A stretch of DNA of 64,000 nt, taken from contig CBDFJJ010000010.1 in NCBI GenBank assembly GCA_965248285.1, positions 133,062 to 197,061 of the forward strand, given 5' to 3'. This stretch comes from Gemmatimonadales bacterium (lineage in GTDB: Bacteria; Gemmatimonadota; Gemmatimonadetes; Gemmatimonadales; GWC2-71-9). The translations under genes and the position numbers were made by a program. The notes beneath the pieces were generated by a model that was not told where the DNA came from, did not search any database, and worked only from the letters and a program-made list of their open reading frames with translations. Shown here piece by piece: positions 3,819 to 60,797 of the stretch (its first letter is position 1; the number at the start of each line of letters is the position of its first letter).

Positions 3819-4730
3819 ATGGACTGGAAAGTTGCCGAGAACGTCGGCGCGAGGATCGCAGATCTCAGAAAAGCTCTTGGGGGTATATCCCAGCGAAAAC
3901 TGGCCGCGCGAGTAGGGGTGGGCAGCAAGCAGGTGTCAAAATGGGAAAACGGGGACCAGGTTCCGCCTCGAACCCGCCTCGCCTCCTGGGTAGAGCGCGA
4001 AGGTTGGCCGATTGAGATGTTCGCGGAGGGCGGTCCAATGCCCTCCACGGTTGTTAACAAGCCCGTTAACGACCTTTCCGGAGAGGGTCGGGCCCTTTAT
4101 GTGTCGACCATAGCAGGAAGACCGCGCGTGCGTGTAAAGGAGCTTGTCGAGGAGGTTCAGAACAGGATCATGCAAGAGCTTTTTGAGCATGGCCTTGAGC
4201 CCGTGCCGCGAGACAGCATAATCTGGGCCGACACTGAAGCGGCCGAACGGAAGACGAGACTTCTACTCAGGCGGATGGACGATGCTATGGATGAGTTGGT
4301 GGGTGGAAAAATGGGGACAAACGCCAAAATTGGCTTATTTATGGCGAAAACATCGTTCGTGAAGGCCGTCGAGGATCAAAGTCGGCATGCAGGCTTGGAG
4401 CCCACCAAGTGGGTTGCTGATTTGGGGGCGGAGGTCGAGGAAAACCGATCGTCCATAATCGACAAACACATCCAATGGTTGGGGCAGGGCCTCCCGGCCA
4501 TGGTTAAACGGCACGTGGACGAGGTCATAGACGAGATGACACCGGGCCTAGCAGAGGACGATCTAGTTGATGTAGTGATGAATGTAGCAACAGAGGGCGA
4601 GGAGGGACCTAAAGCCTCGGTGATCGCCTCAGGCTCGCGACACGGCGATACTTCGAAGCAGGTGCGGCAGAGCGAATCCACCGACGAGGAGGAAGAGGCA
4701 CCTCCGCAGCAGAAGGAATCAGGCGAATAG
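3819..4730 (+). CDS. XRE-family HTH regulator (CI-like) with long acidic C-terminal extension
   Basis: N-terminus RIADLRKALGGISQRKLAARVGVGSKQVSKWENG is a classic HTH_3. Shares GGPMPS-VVN with 60983-61435. Confidence 0.7.
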   Translation: MDWKVAENVGARIADLRKALGGISQRKLAARVGVGSKQVSKWENGDQVPPRTRLASWVEREGWPIEMFAEGGPMPSTVVNKPVNDLSGEGRALYVSTIAGRPRVRVKELVEEVQNRIMQELFEHGLEPVPRDSIIWADTEAAERKTRLLLRRMDDAMDELVGGKMGTNAKIGLFMAKTSFVKAVEDQSRHAGLEPTKWVADLGAEVEENRSSIIDKHIQWLGQGLPAMVKRHVDEVIDEMTPGLAEDDLVDVVMNVATEGEEGPKASVIASGSRHGDTSKQVRQSESTDEEEEAPPQQKESGE

Positions 4731-4782
4731 CGTCGGACTCGAGGATCGCCTTGATGTCATACTTGTCCAGGTAGCGCTGCAA

Positions 4783-5196
4783 TTGGTAGTTGCTGTTGCC
4801 GCCCTCTGCGACCACGCGAACGTGTCGAAAGAAGGCCACCTCAATATCTCTGGGATCTGGGACACGATTGGGGCACCAGATTTTCCTTGTACCCATGCCG
4901 TCATGCATCTCGCGTTGCGCTTCCGATTTGGCTTCGACGACTCCGACAAGGAACACACGGTCTACGTCGAACTACGTGACCCGGAAGAGAACGTGCGGTG
5001 GGGCATGCAGGGAAGGCTGCGAGCCCGTCAGATTCCCGCTGGACGGTTTCATCACCTGAATCAGATCATCCGGCTGACCGGCGTGCAATTCCCGGGTCCT
5101 GACGACTACCATTTCATCATTCGTGGCGAGACGATCGCCGAAACAAAAGTCCCGTTTCAGGTCCTACAGATTGAGGACACTCCGGCCACACCGTGA
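4783..5196 (+). CDS. hypothetical protein (DUF6941-like by recollection only)
   Basis: 137-aa ORF with TTG start. Its stop overlaps the next start (GTGA). An antisense ORF competes for this region. Confidence 0.4.
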   Translation: MVVAVAALCDHANVSKEGHLNISGIWDTIGAPDFPCTHAVMHLALRFRFGFDDSDKEHTVYVELRDPEENVRWGMQGRLRARQIPAGRFHHLNQIIRLTGVQFPGPDDYHFIIRGETIAETKVPFQVLQIEDTPATP

Positions 5197-5465
5197 CCCG
5201 GCGGCGGCGGCTCTTAGAAGAGATGCGTGACGATTCTCACGGATGGTCATGGCTCGATGCGGAATACTTGTTGCAGGAATGGGGATTCAAGCCCCATGAG
5301 GACCTGGACGATACTCGACCTGACGGGGCCTATTTATGGGAACATCCAGACGTACCCGGCGTTATATTCGACGTGCCGAGGTGGGAGCCGCTCGCTTCGG
5401 GGGTTATTCGGGCACTTGTTCGGTACGTTGACATCGTTCGTGAAAGACTCGGAATCGAAGACTGA
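5193..5465 (+). CDS. HicA-like putative toxin
   Basis: 90 aa. Layout LLQEWGF...GAYLWEHPD...VIFDVPRWEPL...VIRALVRYV resembles the HicA fold order. Sits immediately upstream of a HicB-like gene. Confidence 0.4.
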   Translation: MTRRRRLLEEMRDDSHGWSWLDAEYLLQEWGFKPHEDLDDTRPDGAYLWEHPDVPGVIFDVPRWEPLASGVIRALVRYVDIVRERLGIED

Positions 5466-5477
5466 GGTTTTAGAATC

Positions 5478-5804
5478 ATGCCCCGAATACTGGCAAACTA
5501 CACGATCAAGACACAGTGGGAGCCCGCACCCAACGGCGATGGCCTCCTGTTCTTGCTCACACTCGAAGAGATCCCTGGATGTATGGCACAGGGTCGCAGC
5601 TATCGTGAGGCGCGGCGCCAACTCCAGAGAATCTTTCCAAAGTTTCTTGAGGCCATGCGCGCACGCGGCATTGAGCCCCCCGCCCCACGAGAGGGCACCG
5701 TCCGCGTCGCTGATCTGCTTATCGGAATCGACAACAATCTGCGCATTCCGCTCCGACCTGGGCTTCGATCGGATCGCGTAGTTCGAGAGTACGAGTTCGT
5801 GTAA
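5478..5804 (+). CDS. HicB-family antitoxin-like protein
   Basis: LLTLEEIPGCMAQGRSYREARRQLQRIFPKFLEAMRARGIEPPAP matches the HicB N-domain pattern (pelpGC.aqG.t.eEA). Confidence 0.6.
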   Translation: MPRILANYTIKTQWEPAPNGDGLLFLLTLEEIPGCMAQGRSYREARRQLQRIFPKFLEAMRARGIEPPAPREGTVRVADLLIGIDNNLRIPLRPGLRSDRVVREYEFV

Positions 5805-6043
5805 CCGTTGTTGTAAGGTTGTTGATATCGACGACACATAAAAGCTCCTTGACCCCCGCAGGGCAGGGGAAAAGAAAAGCCTCCTTGCGGGGGCTCTGTC
5901 CTGATGGACTAAGACACCGCCGGTCTGACGCAGCCCTTTGTGGTCGGTGCCCTGGCGCGGTAAGATTAATCAACTGCTATCATACAAGCTAACGTTTCTT
6001 GGTGTATGTCATTTATATACAATGACTTATCACTAACACTCTT

Positions 6044-13984: not shown

Positions 13985-14290
13985 CAAAAACGTGGTGGAG
14001 TTATTTTCGAAAGTTGTGGATTGGCGGAATGAGAAAGGCGGCGTATCCTTTCGTGTAGTCGCTTGAAACTCACACGAGATCCGGTTTGTCACAACCGGAG
14101 AAAGGACACGCCACCCGATGTTGAGAATAATGGGGGATGGCTCCGGAAGCAAAGAGAACGGACAGTTGGCCGACCTGGACGAGCTTGCCAGAGAGGGAGC
14201 TCGGCGCATGCTGGTGAGTGCGTTGGACGCTGAGGTTGGCGCGTATGTGGAGCGCCACCGGAGCGATCGAGACGCGGAGGGCGGTGAAAC
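13985..14290 (+). mobile_element. diverged IS256-family left-end fragment (IR plus first ~57 codons)
   Basis: GGAGTTATTTTCGAAAGTTGTGGATTGG end, then MLRIMGDGSGSKENGQLADLDELAREGARRMLVSALDAEV. Homology then stops. Confidence 0.7.
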
Positions 14291-14312
14291 GGCCCAAACC
14301 AAGGAGGGAAGT

Positions 14313-15097
14313 ATGCGATTCCAAGCGGGGTTTTTTGGGGGCCTGCTTCTGGTGTTCAGTGCGTGTGGTGATCCCACGATCGCAAACTTGGACCATGATA
14401 GTGGCGTCATGCTGGAAAGCCGTTCCGGCACCATAGTTGCAAAAGAAGTGATGCAAGACGGGCTGAGCCAGATTACCCGAGAGGTGGCATTGGCACTGGC
14501 CAATCCCATGGTTCGTCAATCTGTTTTTAAGGCGCTCCACGCGTCGCCGTATCCTGAACACAAGCTCCACTTAGGCACCTTCCTACGACAGAGGGACGCG
14601 ATATTGGGACCCGCCATGGCTACTGCCCGCGGCCAAGCGGCTACCGTGGCGGATGTGCTAGCGACGTTGGACGGCATCATTGACCTCGAATTCTACATGC
14701 CCGTGAAGGATCATTTTGCCGAATGGGAAGGAGGCAACAATCTTATTGTGGCTAGTGTTCTTCGGGACGATGGAACGATACCGATCGCGTTTGATCTTTC
14801 AGGAGACCGTTTTCCGATCGCGTCCGCCGAAGACCCCCCAGAAGTTCCGGCACTAGTGCTGGTGCCGGTAGAAACAGATTTTTCTCGCCCGCAGGTTTCG
14901 ACATACGAGGCCGGGGCTGCAGCTAGCGCGGCAACCACCCCCGGAATCTACATGATGAGTGAGTATATTCCGGACGACCATGAGGGTTGGTCGGCGGGCG
15001 ATCCGGAGTTTGAGGTGCACGTCTTTCCTGAGGTATCTGGCGAGTTTGTGGATAAGTATTGTTCTGGTAACGGAAAGACCGGTTCGCGCAACTATGA
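14313..15097 (+). pseudogene. lipoprotein gene, 3'-truncated by IS256 copy 2
   Basis: Lipobox LLLVFSAC. The frame runs straight into the IS256 end at 15098. Confidence 0.6.
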
Positions 15098-35284: not shown

Positions 35285-37045
35285 ATGGTCGATAAAAAAG
35301 TCGGCATCACGCTGAAGGGCCGAGACCTCGCGTCCAAGGCGCTCGGTAAAGTCCGCGGCACGATCAACCGCATCAAGTCTGCGGTGTTCTCGCTGCAGGG
35401 CGCCTTGGTGGGGGTCGGCGTCTTGATGGTCGGACGCATCACGCGTTCGTTCGTCACCGCCTTCACCAAGCAGCAGGATGCCGTCGAGGGTCTCCGAGCC
35501 TCGCTCATCGCCACCGGCAAGGACGGAGAAGCGTCACTTCGCCGTCTCACCGAGCACGCTGCCGAGCTCCAGAAGGTGACCAAAGTCGGCGATGAGGCGA
35601 CGATCGCGGCCATGGCCTCGCTTGCGCTGATGGCGCCGTCGCTTGACGTCCCGGCCCTCGAGCGGGCGCAGCGGGCCATGATCGGGCTCGCTGATGTGTT
35701 TTTCAAAGGCGACTTGGAGGCGGCCGCGCTCCAAATCGGGAAGACGGTCGGGGGCACTACGAACGCGCTCAGTCGGTACACCATCGAGGTCGACATGGCG
35801 GGAGACGCCAACGCGCGGATGAATCAGATCGTTGAGCAAGCGAATCGGTTCTTTGACGTCTCCAAAGCCCGAGCGCAAACGCTCGCCGGCCGGTTGGCAC
35901 GACTCGGCAACAGTTGGGGCGACCTGAAAGAACGGATCGGGCAGTTCCTCGGCGAGTCGCCGCTGGTCAACGCTTTTCTCGACGAGATACGCACGATCGT
36001 CGAGGATGTGACCGGCGCGCTCAACCGGGGCGGACCGCAGATCTTCGAGGCGTTTGCGGCCCTCGGGCAAATCGCCGGCAACGCATTCGTCGAGGCGTTC
36101 CTGCGGGTCGTGCAACTCCTCCACGCCTCGATGGACAACGTCGTCGACTTCCTCGGCGATAAGATCGAGGCGACGTTCAAGCGGAAATTCCCGGCGCTCA
36201 AGGTGGCGTTCGACATCATCACGAAGAAGGTCGACATCGCCGGTCCGGAGACGGCACGCCCAGAGACCGGACCCACGCTCATCGACCGCATGATCGCCGA
36301 GCGCCAGGCGGCGCGCATCGCGGCGCGGGAACGCCTCGCCGCGGCCGGCGCCGGATTCGCGCCTCCCCCTCCCCCCACCACTCCGCCCCCTCCCCCCACC
36401 ACTCCGCCACGTCCCCCGACGGACGCAGAAATCCGTCGTGCTGACCTCACGGCCCGGTTCGGCGGACAACTCCCTGGGGTGCAAGGTGCCGTGACCCGTG
36501 GGGTGGCGGGTGGTGTGAACATGAGCCCACTCCTGCCGCGACCCGCGGACCTGAAAGCGCTCGTGACCTCATCGAAGGAATACGGCGAGGCCCTGAGGAA
36601 ATCGAACGCCTTGCTCATCGAGGCGAAGCGGCGCCAAGAGGAAGCCGCGGAGGCGGCGCGTGCTGCGGCGGTGGCGGCCTTGCAGTCCTGGGCGTTCGCC
36701 GCCAGCGAGTTGATTAGATCGCTCCAGGGCGGCGGTCTGTTCGGCATCCTTGGCGCCATCGGTGGGATCGCCTCACTCCTTCCTGGCGGGCAGATCCTCG
36801 GCGGGGCATTGTTGGCTGGATCGGCCGTGGGCGGTGCGCTGTCTAACAGGAACGGCCAGCCGGTGCGCGTGGACGTGGAACGGTTCGGTAGTCAGGCAGA
36901 GGGGCAGCTCTCGAACACCCGCCGAGGTCTGGAGCGTGTCGAGATCACGATCGTGGACCCGCGCACCGACTTTCGACGGGTCGTCCAGGAGATTCAGGCG
37001 CTCGAGGCGCGCGACGGTATAGCCCGAACGACGGTGAGGCCCTGA
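35285..37045 (+). CDS. phage tail tape measure protein
   Basis: 586 aa, helical. TMP-type N-terminus (...GDEATIAAMASLALMAPSL...). PPPPTTPPPPPTTPP repeat and Gly-rich C-terminus. Confidence 0.8.
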   Translation: MVDKKVGITLKGRDLASKALGKVRGTINRIKSAVFSLQGALVGVGVLMVGRITRSFVTAFTKQQDAVEGLRASLIATGKDGEASLRRLTEHAAELQKVTKVGDEATIAAMASLALMAPSLDVPALERAQRAMIGLADVFFKGDLEAAALQIGKTVGGTTNALSRYTIEVDMAGDANARMNQIVEQANRFFDVSKARAQTLAGRLARLGNSWGDLKERIGQFLGESPLVNAFLDEIRTIVEDVTGALNRGGPQIFEAFAALGQIAGNAFVEAFLRVVQLLHASMDNVVDFLGDKIEATFKRKFPALKVAFDIITKKVDIAGPETARPETGPTLIDRMIAERQAARIAARERLAAAGAGFAPPPPPTTPPPPPTTPPRPPTDAEIRRADLTARFGGQLPGVQGAVTRGVAGGVNMSPLLPRPADLKALVTSSKEYGEALRKSNALLIEAKRRQEEAAEAARAAAVAALQSWAFAASELIRSLQGGGLFGILGAIGGIASLLPGGQILGGALLAGSAVGGALSNRNGQPVRVDVERFGSQAEGQLSNTRRGLERVEITIVDPRTDFRRVVQEIQALEARDGIARTTVRP

Positions 37046-37689
37046 TGCCCCCCCTCCTCGATGTCGAATTCGACTCCCGGGACACGGAACGGTTTCTCGG
37101 TGGCCTGGCCAAGCAAACCTCGTTCGCGTTGTCCGTTGCCATCAACGACACACTCAAAGACGCACAGAAGGTGCAGCGATCGCACCAACGGCGCGTGTTC
37201 ACGGTTCGCCGGCCGCAGTTCGTCGATCGGTCGGTCAAGATCAAACCCTTCGCGACGAAGCGGACGCTCGAGGGCACGATGGCGATTGATCCGCCTGGTG
37301 GGCAGCAGCGCTCCGACATTATCGCGAAGTTCGAACGCGGTGGACAGAAACGCCCTCGAGACGGACGCCACCTTGCCGTGCCCATCGACGTGAAGCGCAC
37401 GAAGGCCGGCGTGGTCACCCGCCGCAATCGTCCCAAGGGCTTCCTCTTCAAACGCGTCGGGCGATCGATACGCGGAGAGCGTCGCACGTTCATCATCCCC
37501 GGTGTGGGGATTTTCCAGCGCGTTGGTAGGCGGAAGAACTCGCGGATCCGTTTGCTCTATGCGTTCAAGACGCAAGTCCGGATTGATCGACGGCTCGATT
37601 TCATCACCAACGCCGAGCGGGTGGTGCGGCAGATGTTTGACCGGAATTTCGATCGCGCGTTTGATCGTGCAGTGGCGACGGCACGATGA
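37045..37689 (+). CDS. basic phage structural-module protein, unknown function
   Basis: 214 aa. The start overlaps the TMP stop (TGATG). Not homologous to 50822-51673. Confidence 0.4.
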   Translation: MPPLLDVEFDSRDTERFLGGLAKQTSFALSVAINDTLKDAQKVQRSHQRRVFTVRRPQFVDRSVKIKPFATKRTLEGTMAIDPPGGQQRSDIIAKFERGGQKRPRDGRHLAVPIDVKRTKAGVVTRRNRPKGFLFKRVGRSIRGERRTFIIPGVGIFQRVGRRKNSRIRLLYAFKTQVRIDRRLDFITNAERVVRQMFDRNFDRAFDRAVATAR

Positions 37690-37813
37690 AGCGCAGACCC
37701 GACGACGATCGCGAAGCGGATCGGCGAGCGGGATCCCGATGCAGCCGTGTTCCCGGGTCACTTCAAGACGGAATTCGCGCGCGCCCTGAGAACGGCAAGG
37801 AGATAGGACGAGT

Positions 37814-38230
37814 ATGACAACAACACAGACGAAACCAGAACCCAAGACCGGCAGCGTCGGTGCGCTGATCCAGCAAGCCGAGGAAGCGCAGGCACGCGGA
37901 CGCGAGATCCTCGATGAACTGAACGAGATGAACAGGGTGTACGTGCAGCTGCTCGAAGCGTTGGAGGTACACGAAGCCACCATCGCCCGTATATGCGCGA
38001 CGAGGTCAGTACGCTCAACGCATATCACGGAAGAAGCCTGTCGAGTTGCCGCGCTGAGCGTCAACGCCTTGCTACGGCACCCACATCGGTCACCGGCATG
38101 TTGCGATGGGTGGTGTTGTTGCGATGGGTGGTGTTACCGCAGGTCGTTGCGGATGGACCGTATTGGGTCGGACAGTCACCAACGCACGCGCGGTTTCAAG
38201 GAGAGGTTTAGGGGTCGCTGCGGTCCCTGA
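37814..38230 (+). CDS. hypothetical; may be two short genes (37814-~37990 and 37993-38211)
   Basis: GC3 signal is good only for the first ~55 codons. An 18-bp tandem repeat lies at about 38101-38136. Confidence 0.25.
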   Translation: MTTTQTKPEPKTGSVGALIQQAEEAQARGREILDELNEMNRVYVQLLEALEVHEATIARICATRSVRSTHITEEACRVAALSVNALLRHPHRSPACCDGWCCCDGWCYRRSLRMDRIGSDSHQRTRGFKERFRGRCGP

Positions 38231-38259
38231 CGTACCGTCCCGATCTCCATGTACCAGGA

Positions 38260-38475
38260 ATGGACGAGATCCGCGCACGAAAGAAGGTGGCCCATGGATT
38301 GTTCCTTGGGAGGATCGTCAAGCCGAAGTGTTGTTCGCGGTGCGGTGCGGTGCCACCAAGGCATCGACCGCACGGACACCACGAGGATTACGAGTATCCC
38401 CTGGGCGTTGCACGGCTTTGTGCCGACTGCCACACAGCGCACCATGGGCATACGTGTTGCAAGAAAAAAACGTAA
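38260..38475 (+). CDS. HNH endonuclease, last 2 codons supplied by the inserted transposon
   Basis: CSRCG...HGHHEDYEYPL...LCADCHTAHH. Sits in the position upstream of the terminase, typical of HNH-assisted cos phages. Confidence 0.75.
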   Translation: MDEIRARKKVAHGLFLGRIVKPKCCSRCGAVPPRHRPHGHHEDYEYPLGVARLCADCHTAHHGHTCCKKKT

Positions 38476-38508
38476 TAACATACTTGACTCACCCAGTCGG
38501 GGTATGCC

Positions 38509-39369
38509 ATGATTGAGGCGTACCACTTCTACAGGCTGGGATGTCTCATGGAGTTGATCGAAACAGGGATGCTAGTTCATCAGGGGTATCTCTTGGGGAC
38601 GGTGCAGTATGTAACCGAGGGATTGTCGATTCGTAGCATGAGAATCGGTACGCAAGAACCCATTGACCTAGAAAGGCTCATTACGCGAACCGAAGGTGAG
38701 CCACTATCCGCAGAGTGGAGGGGTGCTTGGAAAGGACTTTTGGAACGGCTGCAAAGTGAATGTCAAAAACTGCATCTGAAAGCTTCGCTCTATTCGATCC
38801 GTGGAGCGCTGGAACACCTCAAAGACGAAGAGGCGACTTTAGACTTGTTCAAAAAGCATTGTGAACAGATTGCGGGGCGATTGGCGGACGAGCTTCGCGA
38901 AACGGTATGTGTCGCTATTGATCCAATGCACGCCAAATTTTTATCAGATAATCAATTACCGTTTGGCTCAGAGGTGGCTGACCGGTTTCCAAGGGCACAG
39001 GTAGACATAGAAGAAGCCGGCATATGTCTTGCTTTTCATCGCGGAACTGCTTGCGTATTCCACCTAATGCGCGTGCTAGAGGTTGCCCTTCAAGTTCTGG
39101 GCGCCGATCTCAACATTCCAAAACCCGACCGTAATTGGCAGAACCTCTTAAACGAAATTGACAAAGCGGTGAAAGGGTTACCATACCAGTCGCAAGCCGA
39201 TAAGGACGCCCGCGCCCTACGATCAGAGGCGGCGGTCCATCTTCGACAGGTTAAGGACGCGTGGCGTAACTACGTAATGCACCCGAGAGACACCTATACT
39301 GTTGATCAGGCCACAGATGTTTGGAACCACACCAAGGCGTTTATGTCGAGCCTTGCAAAGTTCCTCTAG
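38509..39369 (+). CDS. HEPN-like protein (passenger; candidate defence/abortive-infection RNase)
   Basis: 286-aa ORF (alternative start 38548). C-terminal helical domain with WRNYVMHP (Rx4H). The two 60-nt lines I counted gave 48-52% G+C, against 67% in a terminase line. Confidence 0.45.
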   Translation: MIEAYHFYRLGCLMELIETGMLVHQGYLLGTVQYVTEGLSIRSMRIGTQEPIDLERLITRTEGEPLSAEWRGAWKGLLERLQSECQKLHLKASLYSIRGALEHLKDEEATLDLFKKHCEQIAGRLADELRETVCVAIDPMHAKFLSDNQLPFGSEVADRFPRAQVDIEEAGICLAFHRGTACVFHLMRVLEVALQVLGADLNIPKPDRNWQNLLNEIDKAVKGLPYQSQADKDARALRSEAAVHLRQVKDAWRNYVMHPRDTYTVDQATDVWNHTKAFMSSLAKFL

Positions 39370-39527
39370 GGAAGATGACTGTCGCTATCTGTTTGCTTGC
39401 GCGCATCCGTCAGCAGTTCCGATTTGGGGACAGATACGATCTTGCGTACCAGTTCGGCGGTACGTCGCAACGCCTCATCCCCGTCCGGCTCGGGGTCCGG
39501 ACGGGGTTTCTCTTTCCTGTCGGTCAT
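39366..39527 (-). CDS. 53-aa hypothetical protein downstream of the transposase
   Basis: My own translation: MTDRKEKPRPDPEPDGDEALRRTAELVRKIVSVPKSELLTDARKQTDSDSHLP. Below the track's size cut-off. Its stop overlaps the HEPN-like stop (CTAG). Confidence 0.3.
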   Translation of the reverse strand: MTDRKEKPRPDPEPDGDEALRRTAELVRKIVSVPKSELLTDARKQTDSDSHLP

Positions 39528-39566
39528 TTGCGTTTCTTCGGTCCGCGTTTCAGGTATGGCCCTCGC

Positions 39567-40541
39567 TCATCCTGGCGTCGTCGCCGGGTCCAGGTCCGCG
39601 CCGATCAGTTCGGCGTAGGTCAGCCGCTTGCCGATGATCCGCCGCATCACGTCGATGAACCGGGCCACGTCCTTGGTCTTGCGGTTGTTGAACCGGAACA
39701 CCTGTTCATCAAGGTAGCGGAACAAATGAAACGGCTCCACCGAAACGTACGTGCCGCGCATCCCGCGCTTCAACAGGCTCCAGAAGTTCTCCAGGCCGTT
39801 GACGTGGATCTTCCCTTTGGCGTAGGACGTGGCGTGGTTGATGACCTTGTGGACGTAGAGCCGCCGCAGCGAGACGTAGGAGCGGAGTTGGTCGGTGTAG
39901 ACGGTGGCCCCGGGCTCGACATGTTCATCCACGACGCGGCTCACTGTCTCTTTCCGAATGTTGGGGACGATCTCGGTACGGACGGTGCTGTGGCCCTTCC
40001 GTGCCTTCCGGTCCAGCACGCCCATGACGGCAGTCTTGCCGCTGGTCCCGGCCCGCCGACCGACCATGACCCGCTGTTTCCGCGCCAATGGCATGAACCG
40101 CGCCTTGCCACCGATGAAGGTCTCGTCAATCTCGACCTCACCGTCAATGCGATCGAAGGTCTGGGTCTGCATCGCCAACCGGATACGGTGGAGCATAAAC
40201 CACGAGGTTTTCTGCGTCACGCCGAGCGCCCGACCCAGCTCGTAGGAACTGATGCCGTTCTTGGCATTGGCCAGCATCCAGATGGCGGGCAACCACTTGG
40301 ACAGCGCAACCGGGGAATCTTCGAAGATCGTCCCGACCTTCGCCGAGAATTGCCGCTTACAGCTACGGCACTTCCATATGCGGCGGGTCTTGAGGAAAGA
40401 CGGCTCTGTGGCCTCGCAGCGCGGGCAGGTGACGCCCTCGGGCCACCGCATGGCGACGATGAAATCCAAGGCCACCTGGGGGTTCTGGAAGAAGGTCACG
40501 GCTTCGAGCAGGGATCGGGGAGCAGCGATTGTCTTGTTCAT
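39567..40541 (-). CDS. IS1595-family (ISXO2-like) transposase
   Basis: N-terminal zinc ribbon CPRCE...CRSCKRQFS, then IDETFIGGK and a DDE body. Confidence 0.9.
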   Translation of the reverse strand: MNKTIAAPRSLLEAVTFFQNPQVALDFIVAMRWPEGVTCPRCEATEPSFLKTRRIWKCRSCKRQFSAKVGTIFEDSPVALSKWLPAIWMLANAKNGISSYELGRALGVTQKTSWFMLHRIRLAMQTQTFDRIDGEVEIDETFIGGKARFMPLARKQRVMVGRRAGTSGKTAVMGVLDRKARKGHSTVRTEIVPNIRKETVSRVVDEHVEPGATVYTDQLRSYVSLRRLYVHKVINHATSYAKGKIHVNGLENFWSLLKRGMRGTYVSVEPFHLFRYLDEQVFRFNNRKTKDVARFIDVMRRIIGKRLTYAELIGADLDPATTPG

Positions 40542-40705
40542 GTACCCAATCTAAGGGCATAGGCTGGGTGTGTCAAGTATATTAGAGCGGAAAAAAAGGT
40601 ACTTCTGGCGCTTGAAGCCGTGAGGGTAACGCACGAGCACAGACGATCACTATATACGGCATGTGCGCAAGTCTATGTCGTGTCGTGTGTTCGGGAAGGC
40701 TGTTC

Positions 40706-41215
40706 ATGGTAACAAAGAGATCGACCCAGGCGACATCGCGCAACGCGCGGGTCACGCAAACAGCGTTGGCCAAATTATTCCGCGTTGACGTGCGAACGAT
40801 TCAGCGGTGGACCAAAGCCGGTATGCCGCGAGAGGGCGCCAGCCGGTCCTCCAAGTACGACTTGCCCCAGTGCATCGCGTGGCGACGGGAGGAAGACCGG
40901 AAAGAGGCCGAGGATCTCCGGCACCCCAAGACGTTCGAGGAAGCCCGGGCGCGGAAGATGGCGGCCGAGGCGGAATTGGCAGAACTCGACGTGATGGAGC
41001 GGCGCGGTGAGCTTGGCACGGTCGAGGAGATGGACGAAGTGATCACGACGGGGTTCGGTCGGATGCGGGCGTACGGCTTGGGTGCACCCTCTCGCCATGC
41101 TCGGGACTTTGTTGGACTCAAGACCGTGACGGCTGCGCGCAACGCCGTCCGACACCTGATCACCGAATTGTTCGACGCGTTCCATCGCATGGGCGAGGAA
41201 GACGAGGCTGCGTGA
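40706..41215 (+). CDS. terminase small subunit (Nu1-like HTH)
   Basis: VTQTALAKLFRVDVRTIQRWTKAGMP. Its stop overlaps the TerL start. The start could also be 40661. Confidence 0.65.
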   Translation: MVTKRSTQATSRNARVTQTALAKLFRVDVRTIQRWTKAGMPREGASRSSKYDLPQCIAWRREEDRKEAEDLRHPKTFEEARARKMAAEAELAELDVMERRGELGTVEEMDEVITTGFGRMRAYGLGAPSRHARDFVGLKTVTAARNAVRHLITELFDAFHRMGEEDEAA

Positions 41216-43128
41216 GTGTGGCGCTGGAGAACCTCACTGGTCCCGCGGAGGTCAGTGACCGATTTCGCGAGCACGCCCAGGCGATCTTTGCCCCGCCGGA
41301 GGATCTAACCGGGAGCGAGTGGGCCGATAAGTACCGCGTGATCAGCCCCGGCAACCCGGAGCCCGGTCCCTGGCGCACCGATCGCGCGCCCTACCTGCGC
41401 GAGATCATGAACGTCTGTACCGACCAAAGCGTCGGCGACAAACGTGTGGTGTTCATGAAGTCCGCCCGGGTGGGTGGGACCCAGGCCGGATGTAATGTGA
41501 TCGGGTTCTATACCCATGAAGTCCCGTCCCAGATGCTCGTGGTCCAGCCTACCAAGGAAGACGCCGAAGGATTTTCGAAAGAACAGTTGAAGCCCATGAT
41601 CGACGACACGCCCGTCCTCCGGGAGACCTATTACCCTGAAACGGGCCGGCGAGATTCCCGCAACACCATCCTCAAGAAGTCGTTCCCCGGGGGATTCTTG
41701 GTCATGGTGGGATCGAACAGCGCCTCGGGTTTTCGACGGCGCGACATTCAACGGGTGTTCTTGGAAGAGGTCGACGGTTACGGGCGGGTGGCGCGCGGGA
41801 GTTCGACCAATGCGGAAGGTGACCCGGTCACCCTGGCCGTCAAACGCACCCAGAACTACGACGACCGGCTGATCTACGAGAACTCCACCCCGACCATCAA
41901 GGGGCAGTCGCGCATCGAGCACGACTTCACCCTCTCCGATCAGCGTCGGTATTTCGTCCCCTGCCCCTTCTGCGGCCACATGCAGGTGTTGCACTGGCGC
42001 AACCTGCGCTGGGTGGACAATGACCCGGCGACGGTGCAGTACACCTGCGGGGAGATTTCCAACGAGGGCGAACTCGAGGCAGGATGCGGGAAACCGATCG
42101 AGGAACACCAGAAGCAATGGATGCTCCGCCGTGGGGAGTGGCGGGCCTCCCATGCGGGCCGGCGGATTATCGGCTTTCACCTCTGGGCGGCGTATTCACC
42201 CTTTACCACGTGGGAACGCTTGGTCGAGGAGTGGCTCAACGCCCAGGGCAACAACGAGCTCCTGCAGGTCTTCGTTAACACCGTGCTCGGGGAGACATGG
42301 GAGGGGCCCGCCGGCGAACAAATCGACCACACGGGACTCCTGGCCCGGCGCGAGCGGTATGCCACCGACGTGCCGGCCGGCGTGGGGCTGCTGACCGCAG
42401 GAACGGACGTGCAGGGCGATCGCCTCGAGGTCAGCGTGTGGGGGTGGGGAAAGGGAGAGGAGCAGTGGCTGATTGATCACCAAGTGCTTTTTGGCGACCC
42501 ACACCACGACGAGGTGTGGCGGCAGTTGGACGTGGTGCTCGATCGTCCGTGGAAGCACGCCTCCGGAGCCGACCTCCATCTCCGCGCCATGGGTGTCGAC
42601 GCGGGGGGGCATCATACCCTTGAGGTCCATCAATACTGTGCGGCTCGCTTTTCCCGGGGGGTGATGGCCATGCGAGGGGCCAACGTCCCGGGCGCGGCCG
42701 CGCTCCAGACACCGAGCACGAAAAGCAAAGCGAAAGGGAAACTGTGGACGACGGGCACGGAGGCGCTGAAGGATCTCTTGTATGCCCGGTTGAAACTCAC
42801 CACATCCGCACCGGGGTACGTCCATTTCCCGGTGCACATTGAGGACGAGTACTTCCGGCAACTCACGGCCGAGAAGGCGGTCACGCGCTATGTGAAGAGT
42901 CGGCCGGTGCGCAGGTACGACTTAAAACCCGGCCACCGGAACGAGGCGCTCGACTGTGCGGTCCTGGCGATCGCGGCGTTGATTGCGCTGGGGCCTATTC
43001 GCGACCATCTCGGCGTGTTGGTTGAACAGGTCAACGAAGCTGGCCGGTCGGGGCGGAAGGCCCCGGCGGGCAGGAGGCGACGACGCCTCCGCCGGACGGG
43101 GACCCTTTCCCGTGGCGTTGAGGTGTGA
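41212..43128 (+). CDS. terminase large subunit, lambda GpA family
   Basis: 638 aa. GSEWADKYRVISPGNPEPGPWRTDRAPYLREIMN is the GpA signature region. Confidence 0.9.
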   Translation: MSVALENLTGPAEVSDRFREHAQAIFAPPEDLTGSEWADKYRVISPGNPEPGPWRTDRAPYLREIMNVCTDQSVGDKRVVFMKSARVGGTQAGCNVIGFYTHEVPSQMLVVQPTKEDAEGFSKEQLKPMIDDTPVLRETYYPETGRRDSRNTILKKSFPGGFLVMVGSNSASGFRRRDIQRVFLEEVDGYGRVARGSSTNAEGDPVTLAVKRTQNYDDRLIYENSTPTIKGQSRIEHDFTLSDQRRYFVPCPFCGHMQVLHWRNLRWVDNDPATVQYTCGEISNEGELEAGCGKPIEEHQKQWMLRRGEWRASHAGRRIIGFHLWAAYSPFTTWERLVEEWLNAQGNNELLQVFVNTVLGETWEGPAGEQIDHTGLLARRERYATDVPAGVGLLTAGTDVQGDRLEVSVWGWGKGEEQWLIDHQVLFGDPHHDEVWRQLDVVLDRPWKHASGADLHLRAMGVDAGGHHTLEVHQYCAARFSRGVMAMRGANVPGAAALQTPSTKSKAKGKLWTTGTEALKDLLYARLKLTTSAPGYVHFPVHIEDEYFRQLTAEKAVTRYVKSRPVRRYDLKPGHRNEALDCAVLAIAALIALGPIRDHLGVLVEQVNEAGRSGRKAPAGRRRRRLRRTGTLSRGVEV

Positions 43129-56619: not shown

Positions 56620-57038
56620 AGAACCTCCGCTCGATCGCGCTCTACCTCTGGGAGCGGGAGCTCGGCACGCCGTACCGCTGGGGCGGCGACGACCCGATCG
56701 CGGGTTTCGACTGCTCGGGGTTGGTGATCGAGCACCTTAAGGCGGTCGGGATCCTGCCGGCGCAAGGCGATTGGACGGCCGAGGGGCTCGCCAAGCGGTT
56801 CGAGGGCCGCGAGGTGACCAAGCTCAAACCGGGCTGCCTACTCTTCTGGTTCCGCGGCTCGAAGATCGGGCACGTCGAAATCGTATGGCACGTGATCGGG
56901 GAACGCGTCCTGACGATCGGGGCGGCTGGTGGTGGGTCGCGCACCCAGACTGCAGCCGACGCCGAGGAGCAAAACGCCTATATCAAGGTCCGGCCAGCGC
57001 GGCCGGAGTGGGTCAAGGCCGTCGATCCCTTTTTCTAG
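56616..57038 (+). CDS. NlpC/P60-family endolysin, prophage R
   Basis: PYRWGGDDPIAGFDCSGLV and GHVEIV motifs. Confidence 0.85.
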   Translation: MKNLRSIALYLWERELGTPYRWGGDDPIAGFDCSGLVIEHLKAVGILPAQGDWTAEGLAKRFEGREVTKLKPGCLLFWFRGSKIGHVEIVWHVIGERVLTIGAAGGGSRTQTAADAEEQNAYIKVRPARPEWVKAVDPFF

Positions 57039-57273
57039 CCAGTCTTCCGGCCAGGGATAGAAGGGGCTCGCGTCGGTGCGGTGCGGTGGTGGTGTGAGCC
57101 AGTCGCTGTAGATCCACTGAGTGATGCCCACAAAAAGGTATGGGTCAGTTTGAAATCTGACCCTGTTGCCCTCCCGCCCGTAGGTCCCCTAGCTTTCAGC
57201 TATGCCGAAGAAGAAACCCGAACCGGGCAAGCTCCGCGAGGATGTTGTGCCTCTCTCGCTACCCGCTCTGGTG
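57030..57273. repeat. 244-bp inverted repeat, left arm (partner 60807-61050)
   Basis: I reverse-complemented the right arm and compared it base by base: identical over 244 nt. Confidence 0.9.
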
Positions 57274-57535
57274 CCGGGGCGTTCTGCCTGAGTAGATAGA
57301 GCCGGTACGCAGTATCAAGATTCATCCAGAACTGAGCGCTAGTGCCCAACGCGGCACTGAAAAGCACTGCTGCGTCTGGCGACAGGGTGCGCTTGCCGGA
57401 GATGATACTACTTACAAAGCTCTGGTGGCGGCCAATGATTCTCGCAAACTGCTTTTGTGTCCAACCCCGCTCTTCCAACTCGTCCCGTAAGAACTCACCA
57501 GGGGGGAACGCTTCAGCCGGTGCAAATTCCGTCAT
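57200..57535 (-). CDS. HigA-type HTH antitoxin; last ~24 codons read into the repeat arm
   Basis: GEFLRDELEERGWTQKQFARIIGRHQSFVSSIISGKRTLSPDAAVLFSAALGTSAQFWMNLDTAY. Confidence 0.7.
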   Translation of the reverse strand: MTEFAPAEAFPPGEFLRDELEERGWTQKQFARIIGRHQSFVSSIISGKRTLSPDAAVLFSAALGTSAQFWMNLDTAYRLYLLRQNAPAPERVAREAQHPRGACPVRVSSSA

Positions 57536-57550
57536 GCTGCTCTCCCTCCG

Positions 57551-57848
57551 TTAGTGGTAATCTTCAATCGCAATTATTCCAACCTTCTTGTTTGGGCTCT
57601 CGCCTCTGAGTTCAACCACAAGTCGCCATTGTTTGTTGATACGAAGAGATCGCTGGTGCTTGCGTTTCCCTTTCAGTTTTTCGAAGCGTAGCGATTTGTG
57701 CTTGTATAGGTCCCGTTCGTCGGCCGCCGCTCGGATAGCCTGCATCACCTTTCGGAATCCTCGATCTACGGCGTCCCCCGAACCACCCGTAGCACCACGA
57801 TCAGCCTCTAGTTTTTGAAGGGCGGCGTCCCTCGTGCTCTACTTCCAT
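57551..57848 (-). pseudogene. HigB-type toxin with an apparent 1-nt frameshift
   Basis: C-terminus LRFEKLKGKRKHQRSLRINKQWRLVVEL...IEDYH. The N-terminal homology (DAALQKLEAD...FRKV) has no start. The ATG at 57846-57848 is one frame off. CCC run at 57829-57831. Confidence 0.6.
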
Positions 57849-57945
57849 GTCCAAGGATAGTCGATTACCGTAAAATTATCGGTAGTGGGTCATTTTGAAT
57901 TGTTGAGGCTCTGCGCGACGAGCTTGCCCCTGTTAGCTTTCATAT

Positions 57946-58200
57946 ATGCCGAAAAAGAAGCCCATTGCGAAAACCAAGCTCCGTCCCGACATGAACGAGA
58001 CGGCGCATCGCGTGATGCTGGAAGCGACAGGCCAGGTCCCTAAGACTGTCCCGCCCGGTGAGCGCGAGGATAGCGAAAAAAACCCCGAGGCGGTGAAACG
58101 TGGGGCGAAGGGCGGCGAGGCCCGGGCTAAGGTACTGACCGACGAGGAGCGCGAAAGAATCGCGCAGACGGCCGCCCTGGCGCGGTGGAAGAAGGACTAG
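57946..58200 (+). CDS. small basic protein (MPKKKP..., C-terminal KGGEARAKVLTDEERERIAQTAALARWKK)
   Basis: 84 aa. Its start context is homologous to the truncated ORF inside both 244-bp arms. Confidence 0.5.
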   Translation: MPKKKPIAKTKLRPDMNETAHRVMLEATGQVPKTVPPGEREDSEKNPEAVKRGAKGGEARAKVLTDEERERIAQTAALARWKKD

Positions 58201-58688
58201 TAGTCCGACCCGGACTCAGCCATTCCGCGTGCGATCCGACGCAGCTCCACGTCGAGGGTGAAGTCTTTCTCGACAGTGATAGGTTCTTGGTCGGGATTGA
58301 TACGATTCCAGTGGTCCATGTCGAAGGTAAGCTGGGTGATGTCGCCGACGGTCTGTTCACGGCGCATCGTCTTCGACGCCTCCATCGGTGTCCGGTCGGC
58401 CTCGTCGATGTCGATCCACAGGTGTAGCTGGTCCCGATTCTCGTCGGTCACGACGTACATGTGGTTGACCCGGTAAGGCTCTCCCGTCTCGGGGTCCGTC
58501 CGCGTCTCCTCGCGCGCCGCTTGGGAGAATCTACGGACGAGTTGTTCACGCGGGTCCTTCGGCTCCGGCAACGGATACCCCATCGTATCAATGGCCCAGG
58601 CGACCACGGCCTTCATATCCACCGACGGATTACCGGTCTCGTCTCGGTAGTGACGAATGAGTTTCTGCATCTCTTGATTCTGGCTCAT
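58197..58688 (-). CDS. hypothetical 163-aa protein, no family recognised
   Basis: Second gene of an operon with the XRE-M78 fusion (20-nt gap). Confidence 0.55.
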   Translation of the reverse strand: MSQNQEMQKLIRHYRDETGNPSVDMKAVVAWAIDTMGYPLPEPKDPREQLVRRFSQAAREETRTDPETGEPYRVNHMYVVTDENRDQLHLWIDIDEADRTPMEASKTMRREQTVGDITQLTFDMDHWNRINPDQEPITVEKDFTLDVELRRIARGMAESGSDY

Positions 58689-58708
58689 TGTGCTTGGTCC
58701 TGAAGTGA

Positions 58709-59854
58709 CTAGGAAACGATTGGAGCGACATCACCCCATCCGTCGTGCATGACGTTGGGCAGGACGACTGACCGCACCCTGGCCAAATGCTTTTGAAAGC
58801 GGTCGTATCGCTCTGTGGCGTGTTGGATCTGGCCAGCCACTAGGCCAGGGTGAACATTCACCAGTTTAGCAAAGCTCAGAAGGTCCCTTTCGGTGAATAT
58901 CGGGGCCTTGCACGCTATGAATTGATTTAGGGTCTTCGTTGGAACGCAAAAATCAGCCGCAGCCTTGTTGGCGATACGTTCCTGTTCCTCTACGTCGGGG
59001 CCGATGCCCGCTCGATCGCCTTCAAGTTCGGCGTCGAAAGCGACGGTGGCCCGGCCATCTCCACGCAGGACGTGCTCACATTCGTGACGGAGCACGAACC
59101 AAAAGTTATCGATGCGGTCGTGCCTCATTGTCAGGCCAATCACCGGAGACCGATCGTCGAGCCAGAAGCACACCCCATCAATCTTGGCCGACTTCAGCGA
59201 CTCAACGATCACTAGTCTGATCCCCGCTTCGGCCAAGATGCGTGGAGCCCTCCGTGCCTCTTCGGCTGAAGCCAATAGGGTACGGAGCTGCCTGATCGCC
59301 CTTTGCATCGCCTTCGTCGAGTATCGGGGCACCACCATCACGGTGGCGATCTGCCTGACGCGATACAGCCAGGCAAGCTGTGCCGGGGTCACGTCGCTGT
59401 TGACGGAGGTCTTCTTCGTTGCGTGCGGCAAGATCTCGATGTTGGATGGTGACTCCACGTCGAAAAAACTGGCCAGCGCGGATTCCACTTGCTCGGTGTT
59501 CTTCATGTCGTCGATAGCCAACCATCCTCGGCAAGTCATCTCTTTGACAGGTAGGTCGCCGTATAACTGAGCACGTCGAGCCCGACTTGGGTCGGGCATT
59601 GTCTCGATGCGTGCGCGAGCCAGGTCATAGTTCTTTTGAAGGCCCAGGAAGGTTTCGGCTGGCACACCAAAAACCTCCGACAAAGCGAGCGCCTTGGGGG
59701 CATCGAGGGGTTGCCTGTCGGTGGCAATCCGGGCCACATGGGCACGACTTATTTCCAAGACCGTCGCGAGCACTTCTTGGGTCCAGTCCTTCTGCGAAAG
59801 AAGCCACCGGATGAGTTGCCCTGGCGTCTGGAAGTCCGGCGGGTTGTTTGACAT
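58709..59854 (-). CDS. HTH (XRE/HigA-like) fused to ImmA/IrrE-type M78 metallopeptidase
   Basis: N-terminus WTQEVLATVLEISRAHVARIATDRQPL...FLGLQKNYDL. C-terminus has HEXXH (RHECEHVLRGD). Confidence 0.75.
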   Translation of the reverse strand: MSNNPPDFQTPGQLIRWLLSQKDWTQEVLATVLEISRAHVARIATDRQPLDAPKALALSEVFGVPAETFLGLQKNYDLARARIETMPDPSRARRAQLYGDLPVKEMTCRGWLAIDDMKNTEQVESALASFFDVESPSNIEILPHATKKTSVNSDVTPAQLAWLYRVRQIATVMVVPRYSTKAMQRAIRQLRTLLASAEEARRAPRILAEAGIRLVIVESLKSAKIDGVCFWLDDRSPVIGLTMRHDRIDNFWFVLRHECEHVLRGDGRATVAFDAELEGDRAGIGPDVEEQERIANKAAADFCVPTKTLNQFIACKAPIFTERDLLSFAKLVNVHPGLVAGQIQHATERYDRFQKHLARVRSVVLPNVMHDGWGDVAPIVS

Positions 59855-59927
59855 GGGAGGAATGTATGCGATGTTCGAAATAATACAACAACATTGCTTG
59901 TGCTTAGCAGTTGACTATATTATAGAC

Positions 59928-60797
59928 ATGAACAGACTGTCAGATGCCAAGCGCGCAGCAATCCTACGGTGCCTCACCGAAGGCAATTCCATCCGGTCCA
60001 CGGCCCGCATTACCGGCACCGTGAAAGCCACCGTCCTAAAGTTGCTGGTCGAAACGGGCGAGTTCTGCTCGAACTATCAGGAGCAAGTTCTACGGGATCT
60101 GGACTGCAAGCGTATCGAAGCCGACGAAATTTGGGCCTTCATCGGAGCGAAACAGAGGAACCCGAAGAAGGCGGGGGACGGTGACATTTGGACGTTCACG
60201 GCTCTCGACCCCGATTCCAAGCTGATGGTCGCATGGCTCGTTGGCGACAGAAGCCCCAAGAGTGCCACCATTTTCATGAAGGATCTGGCGTCACGAGTCT
60301 CGGACAAGATCCAGCTAACGACGGATGGTCACGGGATGTACCTGAGCGCCGTACGTGCGGCTTTCAGTTTCCTCGACGTAGACTACGCACAAGTTGTGAA
60401 AAAATACGGCCAGCTAGGGACCACAGAGGAACGGCGGCGTTACTCACCACCGACATGCACCGGGGCCAAGAAGGTCAGAATGATCGGCAACCCCAACCCG
60501 GACCTGATCTCAACATCCATGGTCGAGCGCAGCAACCTACAGCTTCGGATGTCTTCACGGCGATTCACCCGCTTGACGAGCGGATTCAGCCGGAAGGCCG
60601 AGAATCACGCCCACGCGGTCAGCCTGACCTTCATGGCGTACAACTTCTGCACGCTCCACGGGACCCTCACGAAGGCGCGCGGTGGCCTCAAGACGACCCC
60701 AGCGATGGCCGCTGGCCTTACAAAGCGCCCTTGGAAGATTGAGGACGTCCTGGCCCTCATGGATGGGGCGTACCGTACGACCGCGAATTCAAAATGA
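59928..60797 (+). CDS. IS1-family transposase (single-ORF type)
   Basis: N-terminal HTH (AAILRCLTEGNSIRSTARITG), then ADEIWAFIGAKQ...WTFTALD...TTDGHGMY. Confidence 0.8.
   Translation: MNRLSDAKRAAILRCLTEGNSIRSTARITGTVKATVLKLLVETGEFCSNYQEQVLRDLDCKRIEADEIWAFIGAKQRNPKKAGDGDIWTFTALDPDSKLMVAWLVGDRSPKSATIFMKDLASRVSDKIQLTTDGHGMYLSAVRAAFSFLDVDYAQVVKKYGQLGTTEERRRYSPPTCTGAKKVRMIGNPNPDLISTSMVERSNLQLRMSSRRFTRLTSGFSRKAENHAHAVSLTFMAYNFCTLHGTLTKARGGLKTTPAMAAGLTKRPWKIEDVLALMDGAYRTTANSK

Follow-up and report, generated by a model that had tools for sequence, protein, structure and literature searches.

Ribonucleases (RNases) of the HEPN superfamily, single-gene HEPN defence proteins and passenger-bearing insertion sequences (ISs) of the IS1595 family are all kinds of system already known, and the locus described here would bring them together: it is a gene for a 286-amino-acid (aa) protein that lies, within a small transposon, in a window of 64,000 nucleotides (nt) from a Gemmatimonadales bacterium (the window being the whole stretch of DNA that was analysed; contig CBDFJJ010000010.1, assembly GCA_965248285.1). 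In the HEPN survey, the Rx4-6H motif is placed at the end of helix 3 or in the loop, inserts between helices 2 and 3 are frequent, and a conserved acidic residue in helix 2 adjoins the active site; the word 'transposase' is absent from the text of this survey (Anantharaman et al., 2013; PMC3710099). RAZR, which combines a zinc finger with a DUF4145-type HEPN domain, cleaves single-stranded RNA, loses its defence activity when the R or H residue is mutated, and follows the logic of abortive infection (PMC13017515). The Ishtar anti-plasmid proteins join a HEPN domain of the DUF4145/DUF3644 type to a C-terminal beta domain (bioRxiv 10.64898/2026.07.06.735840). Transporter ISs (tIS), finally, are IS-like elements with passenger genes, a recognised category that is confined to the IS1595 and IS66 families.

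We read the 286-aa protein as a two-domain HEPN protein that travels as the passenger of a tIS and that would serve as a trigger-activated RNase in defence, and we assign this explanation as a whole a probability of about 0.55. For its structural and transposon parts, taken alone, our confidence is high.

The passenger gene and its transposon

The open reading frame (ORF) that a previous sequence-only reading singled out, at positions 38509-39369 of the forward strand, runs from ATG to TAG and is a real gene. One sequence search returned 346 homologues, and a HMMER scan, exhaustive over 1.84 billion representatives of 50%-identity clusters, matched 6,247 of these at E <= 1e-3 and 4,183 at E <= 1e-10; because of this large family we rejected a spurious ORF. 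Hence, the term 'orphan' applied to the protein by the sequence-only reading is mistaken if it means without relatives, and is apt only inasmuch as the protein falls in no curated family. None of the matched clusters carries a name or a Pfam domain, the closest relatives beyond the protein's own cluster share only 45-51% identity with it, no model in Pfam, NCBIfam or PADLOC reached its threshold, and the PDB, whether searched by sequence or by profile, yielded chance matches only. Collectively, these proteins form a new, very large and unmodelled family inside the HEPN superfamily, and the window shows this family in the mobile setting where it is most often seen. The gene belongs to an element of 2,119 bp (38471-40589) with the following parts:

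38463-38470, no strand: left target-site duplication (TSD) GAAAAAAA, an 8-mer identical at both ends of the element
38471-38496, plus strand: left inverted repeat (IRL), 26 bp, CGTAATAACATACTTGACTCACCCAG, with an inward -35-like TTGACT
38509-39369, plus strand: HEPN passenger gene, 286 aa, ATG-to-TAG ORF; AlphaFold model of the whole protein with a predicted local distance difference test (pLDDT) of 84.8
39366-39527, minus strand: small backbone gene, 53 aa, with the motif ...RKIVSVPKSEL..., matched by a hidden Markov model (HMM) at E = 1.6e-14
39567-40541, minus strand: IS1595-family DDE transposase, 324 aa, with an N-terminal zinc ribbon, from profile matches
40564-40589, minus strand: right inverted repeat (IRR), 26 bp, the inverted repeat of IRL
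40590-40597, no strand: right TSD GAAAAAAA, a perfect 8-bp copy of the left one

An inverted-repeat scan found the segments 38476-38496 and 40564-40584, which bracket all three ORFs. The inverted repeats (IRs) are imperfect (22 of 30 positions are identical between IRL and the right end) and their tips are degenerate; their core AATATACTTGAC is common to the IRs of about 20 related elements. The transposase matches DDE_Tnp_IS1595 (PF12762) at 4.6e-39, Zn_ribbon_IS1595 (PF12760) at 7.1e-14 and the NCBIfam model transpos_IS1595 (NF033547) at 3.8e-56, the last above its cut-off. The HEPN gene is the passenger of an IS1595-family tIS. Carriage by a mobile element, as had been surmised, is thereby made specific, and the 53-aa convergent ORF, whose stop codon does overlap that of the HEPN gene in CTAG (39366-39369), turns out not to be the only neighbour as had been stated: the transposase gene lies about 200 bp downstream, inside the same element. 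The nearest tIS are presumably the passenger-bearing ISNwi1 and ISPna2 subgroups of IS1595; the IR start GGCAAT(T/A)AT resembles the ISNwi1 consensus, a likeness that we take as a lead only.

The window protein is recorded on two contigs in the databases, and the transposase on three. There is also a third copy of the gene on record, P0001 (from the source genome or a related one), which agrees fully with the window protein up to residue 244, runs on from there in unrelated sequence (QSYFRKLWIGGMRKAAYPFV) and so is without the catalytic motif; its tail is a junction with unrelated sequence, and we rejected a frameshift as its cause. Looking up the genomic context by exact sequence gave no entry for P0001, P0029, the window protein or the transposase.

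The predicted HEPN domain and its variable N-terminal partner

The protein falls into two parts of very different character:

38509-38949, plus strand: N-terminal domain, aa 1-147, helical, fast-evolving and of no recognisable family
38950-39366, plus strand: predicted HEPN domain, aa 148-286 (139 aa), with four core helices and a helical insert between helices 2 and 3
39046-39081, plus strand: helix-2 block TACVFHLMRVLE, aa 180-191, with the near-invariant residues H185, R188 and E191
39265-39282, plus strand: Rx4H motif R253-N254-Y-V-M-H258, in which R, N and H are each present in 254 of 254 family members

AlphaFold models residues 148-286 with a pLDDT of 94.0 and a predicted template-modelling (TM) score of 0.88, and the structure-based evidence points to a divergent HEPN domain. 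The five best PDB matches of this domain model in Foldseek (1wol, 2hsb, 3o10_C, 1ufb and 3o10_A) are all HEPN domains, with probabilities of 0.97-0.99 and TM scores of 0.50-0.59, and other HEPN toxins (4nqf, 8xdj, 8xeh, 1o3u and 2q00) come further down. HEPN proteins also ranked first when the whole protein was searched. The modelled helices span residues 161-175, 179-200, 210-222 (the insert), 229-253 and 265-285; in this predicted structure, R253 closes the third core helix and H258 sits in the loop before the last helix, where the HEPN survey, too, has the canonical motif. The sequence-only reading had suspected a helical C-terminal half of HEPN-like fold, and the model agrees with it on both counts. 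The octamer WRNYVMHP, on which that suspicion was founded, is present (residues 252-259, nt 39262-39285) and is not the end of the protein as had been claimed, since 27 residues follow the motif.

Profile comparisons lead to the same superfamily at low scores. The window protein itself gives E = 0.07 against DUF4145 (PF13643; 13.6 bits, gathering score 23.1). The consensus of the C-terminal domain gives E = 0.002 against the PF05168 HEPN model (18.7 bits, gathering score 22; model positions 10-113 of 117) and E = 0.0025 against DUF4145 (18.3 bits, gathering score 23.1; positions 1-87 of 88). The weak Pfam matches of 37 family members fall in the HEPN clan (DUF4145 six times, Hypoth_Ymh three times, in addition to HEPN, NTase_sub_bind and Csm6-HEPN). 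The family has strongly conserved signatures of its own, ACVFHLMRVLE and KDAWRN.

Among the 254 family members with a complete HEPN domain, R253, N254 and H258 are each invariant, so that the expectation of conserved Rx4H residues among homologues was correct; W252 is kept in 253 members, and in helix 2, H185 is kept in 253, R188 in 251 and E191 in 253. This near-invariance is what an active site under strong purifying selection would show, and it bears on a different view of the protein, according to which the domain would be non-catalytic and would bind a nucleotide or RNA ligand or act as a scaffold, as do the HEPN domains of sacsin or the C-terminal domains of kanamycin nucleotidyltransferase. 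Such a role could be read from the presence of the non-nuclease proteins sacsin (3o10) and TT1696 (1ufb) among the best structural matches, and inactive HEPN families are listed in the HEPN survey (PMC3710099). These families, however, typically lose the R or the H residue, both of which are retained throughout the family studied here, and we consider a non-catalytic role improbable.

We regard the N-terminal domain as a candidate sensor or regulatory domain. Mean pairwise identity within the family amounts to 19.7% in this domain vs. 48.7% in the C-terminal one. The N-terminal half is helical in the model with a flexible stretch at residues 38-57, and the domain has no match in Pfam, the PDB or the BFVD collection of viral structures. 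The only cysteines among the first 147 residues are C12, C85, C118 and C134, and none of them form a CxxC pair.

Recurrence of the element, its cargo slot and its insertion site

A scan of species-representative genomes yielded 329 relatives, from which 80 loci were kept; they come from Acidobacteriota, Chloroflexota, Alphaproteobacteria, Planctomycetota, Gemmatimonadota, Nitrospirota and others. An IS1595-type transposase lies within 6 kb of the HEPN-family gene in 48 of the 80 loci, and among the 67 informative ones (those with at least 1.5 kb of downstream sequence) it stands downstream and convergent, the layout seen in the window, in 38. Two loci on one Blastocatellia contig, 230 kb apart (L002 and L003), share a 2,039-bp unit at 99.95% identity that has sharp bounds and perfect 23-bp IRs, with a perfect 8-bp TSD at one of the copies. 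Twenty related elements share the IR consensus GGCAATAATATACTTGAC, and their TSDs are perfect over all 8 bp. The whole unit moves as one piece.

Several individual loci deserve mention in their own right. At L042:4638-8784, two co-oriented units of transposase and small ORF surround one HEPN gene, and the transposase is located upstream of the cargo, unlike in the customary convergent layout. The transposase regions of L005:2493-3257, from a metagenome-assembled genome (MAG) labelled Woesearchaeota (archaeal), and of L068:7056-7820, from a Dehalococcoidia MAG, are 85% identical at the DNA level, which reflects either a recent cross-domain transfer or a binning artefact. A 903-bp cassette at L015:2614-3516 contains only a 257-aa HEPN-family gene and no transposase; its IRs agree at 18 of 22 positions (GGTAATGTATCATTTTGA), the 8-bp duplication around it is perfect (GACTTCCT), and it has the appearance of a mobile insertion cassette that is non-autonomous. 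Finally, L017:3477-6381 and L047:5595-8218 are 72% identical elements with another type of IR (GGTA[CG]TGTCC...TTGCGTTGC), the former with a perfect 8-bp TSD. Both carry a HEPN-family gene together with a co-directional 321-aa protein that starts with CPTC...CAEC and has no match to the IS1595 transposase profile. By eye, this protein resembles an IS1-family transposase; if it is one, a second IS lineage would transport the same cargo.

Metagenomic contigs sampled by IR sequence, and not by cargo, give a picture of what else these elements contain. The HEPN gene is present in seven of 76 sufficiently long IR-anchored segments. In most segments, the transposase comes, usually with the small protein, alongside another slot gene, whose product is some 250-330 aa long. 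Of the slot proteins, 31 reach 180 aa or more, and these mostly show no relation to one another; those that could be identified are DUF3800 (five), SocA/Panacea (two), and Replic_Relax, DUF3226, dCTPase and PD-Lambda-5_A (one each). The last of these, at L183:6711-8006, is a full-length homologue (PADLOC, 8e-126), encoded directly after an IS1595-type transposase, of a protein with experimentally validated anti-phage activity. Another sister cargo (L136:647-1612), unrelated in sequence to the window protein and with no Pfam or PADLOC match, has a second RNxxxH motif at its end (...FRNALIHNAG...); it may be another HEPN protein.

The HEPN gene also occurs without a transposase, in 24 of the 67 informative genomic loci and on six alphaproteobacterial plasmids, where it is annotated as 'hypothetical protein' and is accompanied by HipA and VapC modules, rep/par regions, or SbcCD-like genes. 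Neither the plasmids nor the 24 transposase-less loci, with their 90 neighbouring ORFs, revealed a recurrent partner. As the sequence-only reading had stated, profile scans of the window found no adjacent MNT-type antitoxin, and an MNT gene is likewise missing from the 90 neighbouring ORFs of the related loci. This pattern fits a self-sufficient gene that was picked up as cargo, and the proposal of a single gene with no dedicated antitoxin is in keeping with the lack of any conserved partner. More tentatively, the IS1595 lineage with IRs of the type GGCAATAATATACTTGAC, a transposase and a protein of about 60 aa with the motif 'VP(K/H)SE' might be a dedicated one-gene-slot shuttle for mostly single-gene immune or toxin effectors. 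The HEPN family would then be a new monogenic defence RNase that is spread by it, and apparently also by the IS1-like element and the transposase-less cassette, and the small protein would be a new factor for transposition or cargo expression.

The 53-aa protein belongs to a family with the motif F-x2-F-x2-L-x2-[IV]-x2-VP-[KH]-[ST]-E-[ILV], followed by a basic tail. This family has 799 detectable members, all of them unnamed and with no Pfam domain, and the small protein is matched by no model in Pfam, PADLOC or NCBIfam. An HMM built from the small ORFs of other elements finds the family in 36 of the 80 loci. The small gene lies on either strand, directly after the HEPN stop codon or, as in the window, after that of the transposase, and its conservation at the protein level whatever its orientation marks it as a real gene. 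It adjoins an IS1595 transposase in four of four independent look-ups (six places), and it is present in IR-sampled elements with other cargo. Among the 24 transposase-less HEPN loci there is a single match (L064), about 600 bp upstream and outside the usual slot. Longer gaps contain no third conserved gene besides it. The small ORF is a backbone gene of the IS lineage that follows the transposase rather than the HEPN gene.

These observations bear on the possibility of selfish addiction, in which a HEPN toxin would penalise the loss or inactivation of the transposon and would have as its neutraliser either the 53-aa protein or, acting in cis, the N-terminal domain of the toxin itself. Tn3-family transposons are documented to carry toxin-antitoxin (TA) pairs, HEPN toxins among them; the small ORF sits between the two larger genes with its stop codon overlapping that of the HEPN gene; and P0001 is cut just before the catalytic motif, as counter-selection against a toxin might give. 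The small protein, however, accompanies many unrelated cargoes and stays beside IS1595 transposases whatever the cargo is, it is absent from 23 of the 24 transposase-less loci that keep an intact HEPN gene, and its orientation flips among elements. Moreover, a chromosomal IS is rarely lost by segregation, which leaves little for post-segregational killing to act upon. Because the small ORF accompanies unrelated cargoes and is missing beside transposase-less HEPN genes, it is unlikely to be a dedicated antitoxin of the HEPN protein, and we judge addiction as a whole to be unlikely as well.

Returning to the HEPN gene as an independent passenger, its candidate expression signals lie in part in the ends of the element. 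Both IRs contain a -35-like TTGAC at IR positions 14-19 that reads inward. The candidate signals in the window are:

38484-38513, inward: promoter-like site at IRL from a promoter scan, its -10 weaker than that on the transposase side
40548-40576, minus strand: promoter-like site in IRR, TTGACA-17 nt-TAGATT, with 10 of 12 matches, ending 7 nt before the transposase ATG
39479-39506, plus strand: G+C-rich hairpin followed by a T-run, terminator-like, with a 10-bp stem of which nine pairs are G-C

On the transposase side of related elements, a good -10 is found at a spacing of 17 nt and the ORF starts 5-25 nt further on. If the promoter at IRL is used, translation of the HEPN gene may start at M14 (38548), an alternative start at whose equivalent position several homologues begin. 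The hairpin sits in the non-conserved 5' part of the small ORF and is present in the minimum-free-energy fold; it could be the terminator of the cargo transcript, and the intergenic region as a whole is not significantly more stable than shuffled sequences (z = -1.75). A terminator scan showed none for the transcript opposing the cargo, so antisense read-through into the cargo gene appears possible. An Rfam search at a permissive threshold and a tandem-repeat scan gave no candidate RNA antitoxin and no repeat array.

With a G+C content of 50.5%, the HEPN gene differs from its flanks (62-64%), as the sequence-only reading had noted. In every one of 39 elements, the cargo is also poorer in G+C than the transposase gene beside it (cargo 49.9%, transposase 54.7%, flanks 60.0%). 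The low value is thus characteristic of this gene family and gives no indication of recent arrival in the present host.

The shared architecture could also mean that the HEPN protein is a transposition accessory, an RNase that trims or breaks down the transposase mRNA or another RNA, for example inside the convergent transcription unit, and in this way tunes transposition. The convergent arrangement with the transposase is kept in 38 of 67 loci, both genes are apparently driven by IR-embedded promoters, and the co-divergence of the two is weak but significant. Yet the same backbone and IRs work with wholly unrelated cargoes, only seven of 76 IR-sampled elements have the HEPN gene, and the family exists with no transposase in 24 of 67 loci and on plasmids. 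We therefore hold an accessory role to be very unlikely and retain that of a self-sufficient passenger.

The element inserted into a prophage gene:

38260-38475, plus strand: insertion target, prophage HNH-type endonuclease gene (71 aa), matching a PHROG endonuclease at 2.1e-10

Removal of the element in silico lengthens the HNH ORF by seven codons, the last codons of which had been replaced by the insertion. Downstream of the HNH gene follow terS (40661-41215), terL, portal, protease and major head genes, and with the tape-measure and minor tail genes on the other side, the prophage location given by the sequence-only reading is confirmed. Its use as an argument for defence cargo found no support, since the IS simply landed in phage DNA. 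A search of 50,697 phage genomes gave no match to the HEPN family, which identifies the prophage as the landing site of the IS and not as the source of the cargo. The location in a prophage packaging region might otherwise be taken for that of a moron, a phage-beneficial or counter-defence gene beside an IS. Given that the HEPN gene lies inside an IS bounded by IRs and TSDs and not in phage DNA, that its family is absent from these phage genomes and has no meaningful structural match in BFVD, and that related copies occupy non-phage contexts, we give this idea almost no credence.

The gene order of the prophage (35285-43128) is unusual, with the tape-measure-like (35285-37045) and minor tail (37045-37689) genes directly upstream of HNH, terS and terL, which suggests either that two phage-derived modules were joined or an end-to-start join of one genome. 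A perfect tandem duplication at 38099-38135 (18-nt unit TGTTGCGATGGGTGGTGT, 2.1 copies) falls outside the IS, in an ORF (37814-38230) that precedes the HNH gene. Elsewhere in the window, the stretches 4001-6000, 14001-15000 and 57001-60000 have a lower G+C content (0.55-0.57 vs. about 0.61-0.64) and may be further foreign insertions.

Proposed function and relation to known systems

In the mechanism that we favour for the passenger, the C-terminal domain is probably, like every characterised HEPN protein whose Rx4-6H motif is intact, a metal-independent RNase that acts as a dimer. Because no conserved antitoxin partner accompanies the gene, we propose that the N-terminal domain probably keeps the protein inactive until a trigger activates it. 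The activated RNase would cleave RNA and arrest growth, in the manner of RAZR and other monogenic HEPN immunity proteins. A cargo that is useful to the host or hard to lose would favour retention of the transposon, and the ends of the element may drive, and possibly regulate, the transcription of cargo and transposase alike, as proposed from the inward -35 boxes in both IRs.

The abortive-infection RNase or toxin of the sequence-only reading is something that we, too, can only infer; indirect support comes from the defence genes in sister slots and from monogenic DUF4145-type HEPN immunity proteins. Our own case for defence is built on these two points and on the behaviour of HEPN proteins with an Rx4-6H motif, and the hypervariable N-terminal domain and the absence of the family from phage genomes can be read in the same direction. 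For a role in defence or abortive infection as such, we put the odds at slightly short of even.

Several observations weigh against our explanation. On the structural side, the Foldseek E-values are weak (0.08-0.2) in spite of the high probabilities, which is why we call the HEPN domain divergent, and every Pfam HEPN-clan match remains under its gathering threshold. On the functional side, PADLOC has no model that matches the protein even at E <= 1, and its models match only two of the 31 sister cargoes (PD-Lambda-5_A and dCTPase), most cargoes being without known function. Transposase-less copies are flanked mostly by housekeeping genes and not by defence islands; four DNA methylases were seen. 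Auto-inhibition by the N-terminal domain is a conjecture. The HEPN gene and the transposase co-diverge only weakly (Mantel r = 0.20, a value reached by eight of 2,000 permutations), and at this value we rejected a strong co-phylogeny of the two; the weak signal fits a swappable cargo and is silent on function.

What the locus offers in any case is a name and a testable site (R253, H258, H185, R188 and E191) for a very large unannotated family, a HEPN family dispersed by one of the smallest vehicles conceivable, as cargo of an IS of about 2 kb, and, in the conserved small protein, an unstudied component of IS1595-type transposons. If the role in defence is true, minimal tIS would count, along with integrons, Tn7-like elements and prophages, among the carriers of bacterial immune genes, and the variable IS1595 slot would be a cheap source of new single-gene defence or toxin proteins. 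The searchable literature, from which the 2009 paper that defined IS1595 was outside the scope, contains no description of a HEPN cargo in IS1595, of the small backbone protein or of a defence-flavoured slot. That paper, by Siguier and colleagues, reportedly includes a table of IS1595 subgroups with the passenger-bearing ISNwi1 and ISPna2.

Set against known systems, the window protein resembles PD-T7-4, or RAZR, as the product of a single gene with a non-catalytic N-terminal domain and a divergent C-terminal HEPN domain. It differs in lacking a Cys4 zinc ribbon at its N-terminus and in having an Rx4H motif where RAZR has R146...H154. The protein gave no PD-T7-4 match at E <= 1 in PADLOC, which contains PD-T7-4 models; with neither a Cys4 zinc finger nor a PADLOC match, we rejected it as a RAZR orthologue. 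The Ishtar proteins are likewise monogenic, patchily distributed HEPN immunity proteins, but their HEPN domain is N-terminal, the reverse of the order found here, and their partner domains are different. With HEPN-MNT TA systems the protein shares the HEPN fold (8xdj and 8xeh are among its structural matches), whereas neither the window nor the 80 related loci have a neighbouring MNT or nucleotidyltransferase gene and the protein is about twice the size of an MNT-associated toxin; for lack of that neighbour we rejected a HEPN-MNT pair. The HEPN families among abortive-infection (Abi) proteins (AbiD/F, AbiJ, AbiU2 and AbiV) and the other PADLOC systems gave no match in PADLOC, Pfam or NCBIfam.

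Within the HEPN superfamily, the four-helix core, the insert between helices 2 and 3 and the acidic residue in helix 2 are common to the window family and to the DUF4145-like and PF05168 branches (PMC3710099), whereas scores below all gathering values of the Pfam HEPN clan, signatures of its own and an unrecognised N-terminal domain set the family apart. The transposon agrees with IS1595 tIS in its DDE_Tnp_IS1595 and zinc-ribbon transposase, its IRs, its 8-bp TSD and one or few passengers inside the IRs, and differs from those described in the searchable literature in its HEPN passenger, a swappable defence-type slot and a conserved small backbone protein. HEPN-type toxins on mobile elements have precedents in the TA transposons of the Tn3 family and in an integron-cassette HEPN protein (PDB 3jrt). 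There, the toxin comes with its cognate antitoxin (Tn3) or in an integron cassette, whereas here it is the single cargo of a minimal IS.

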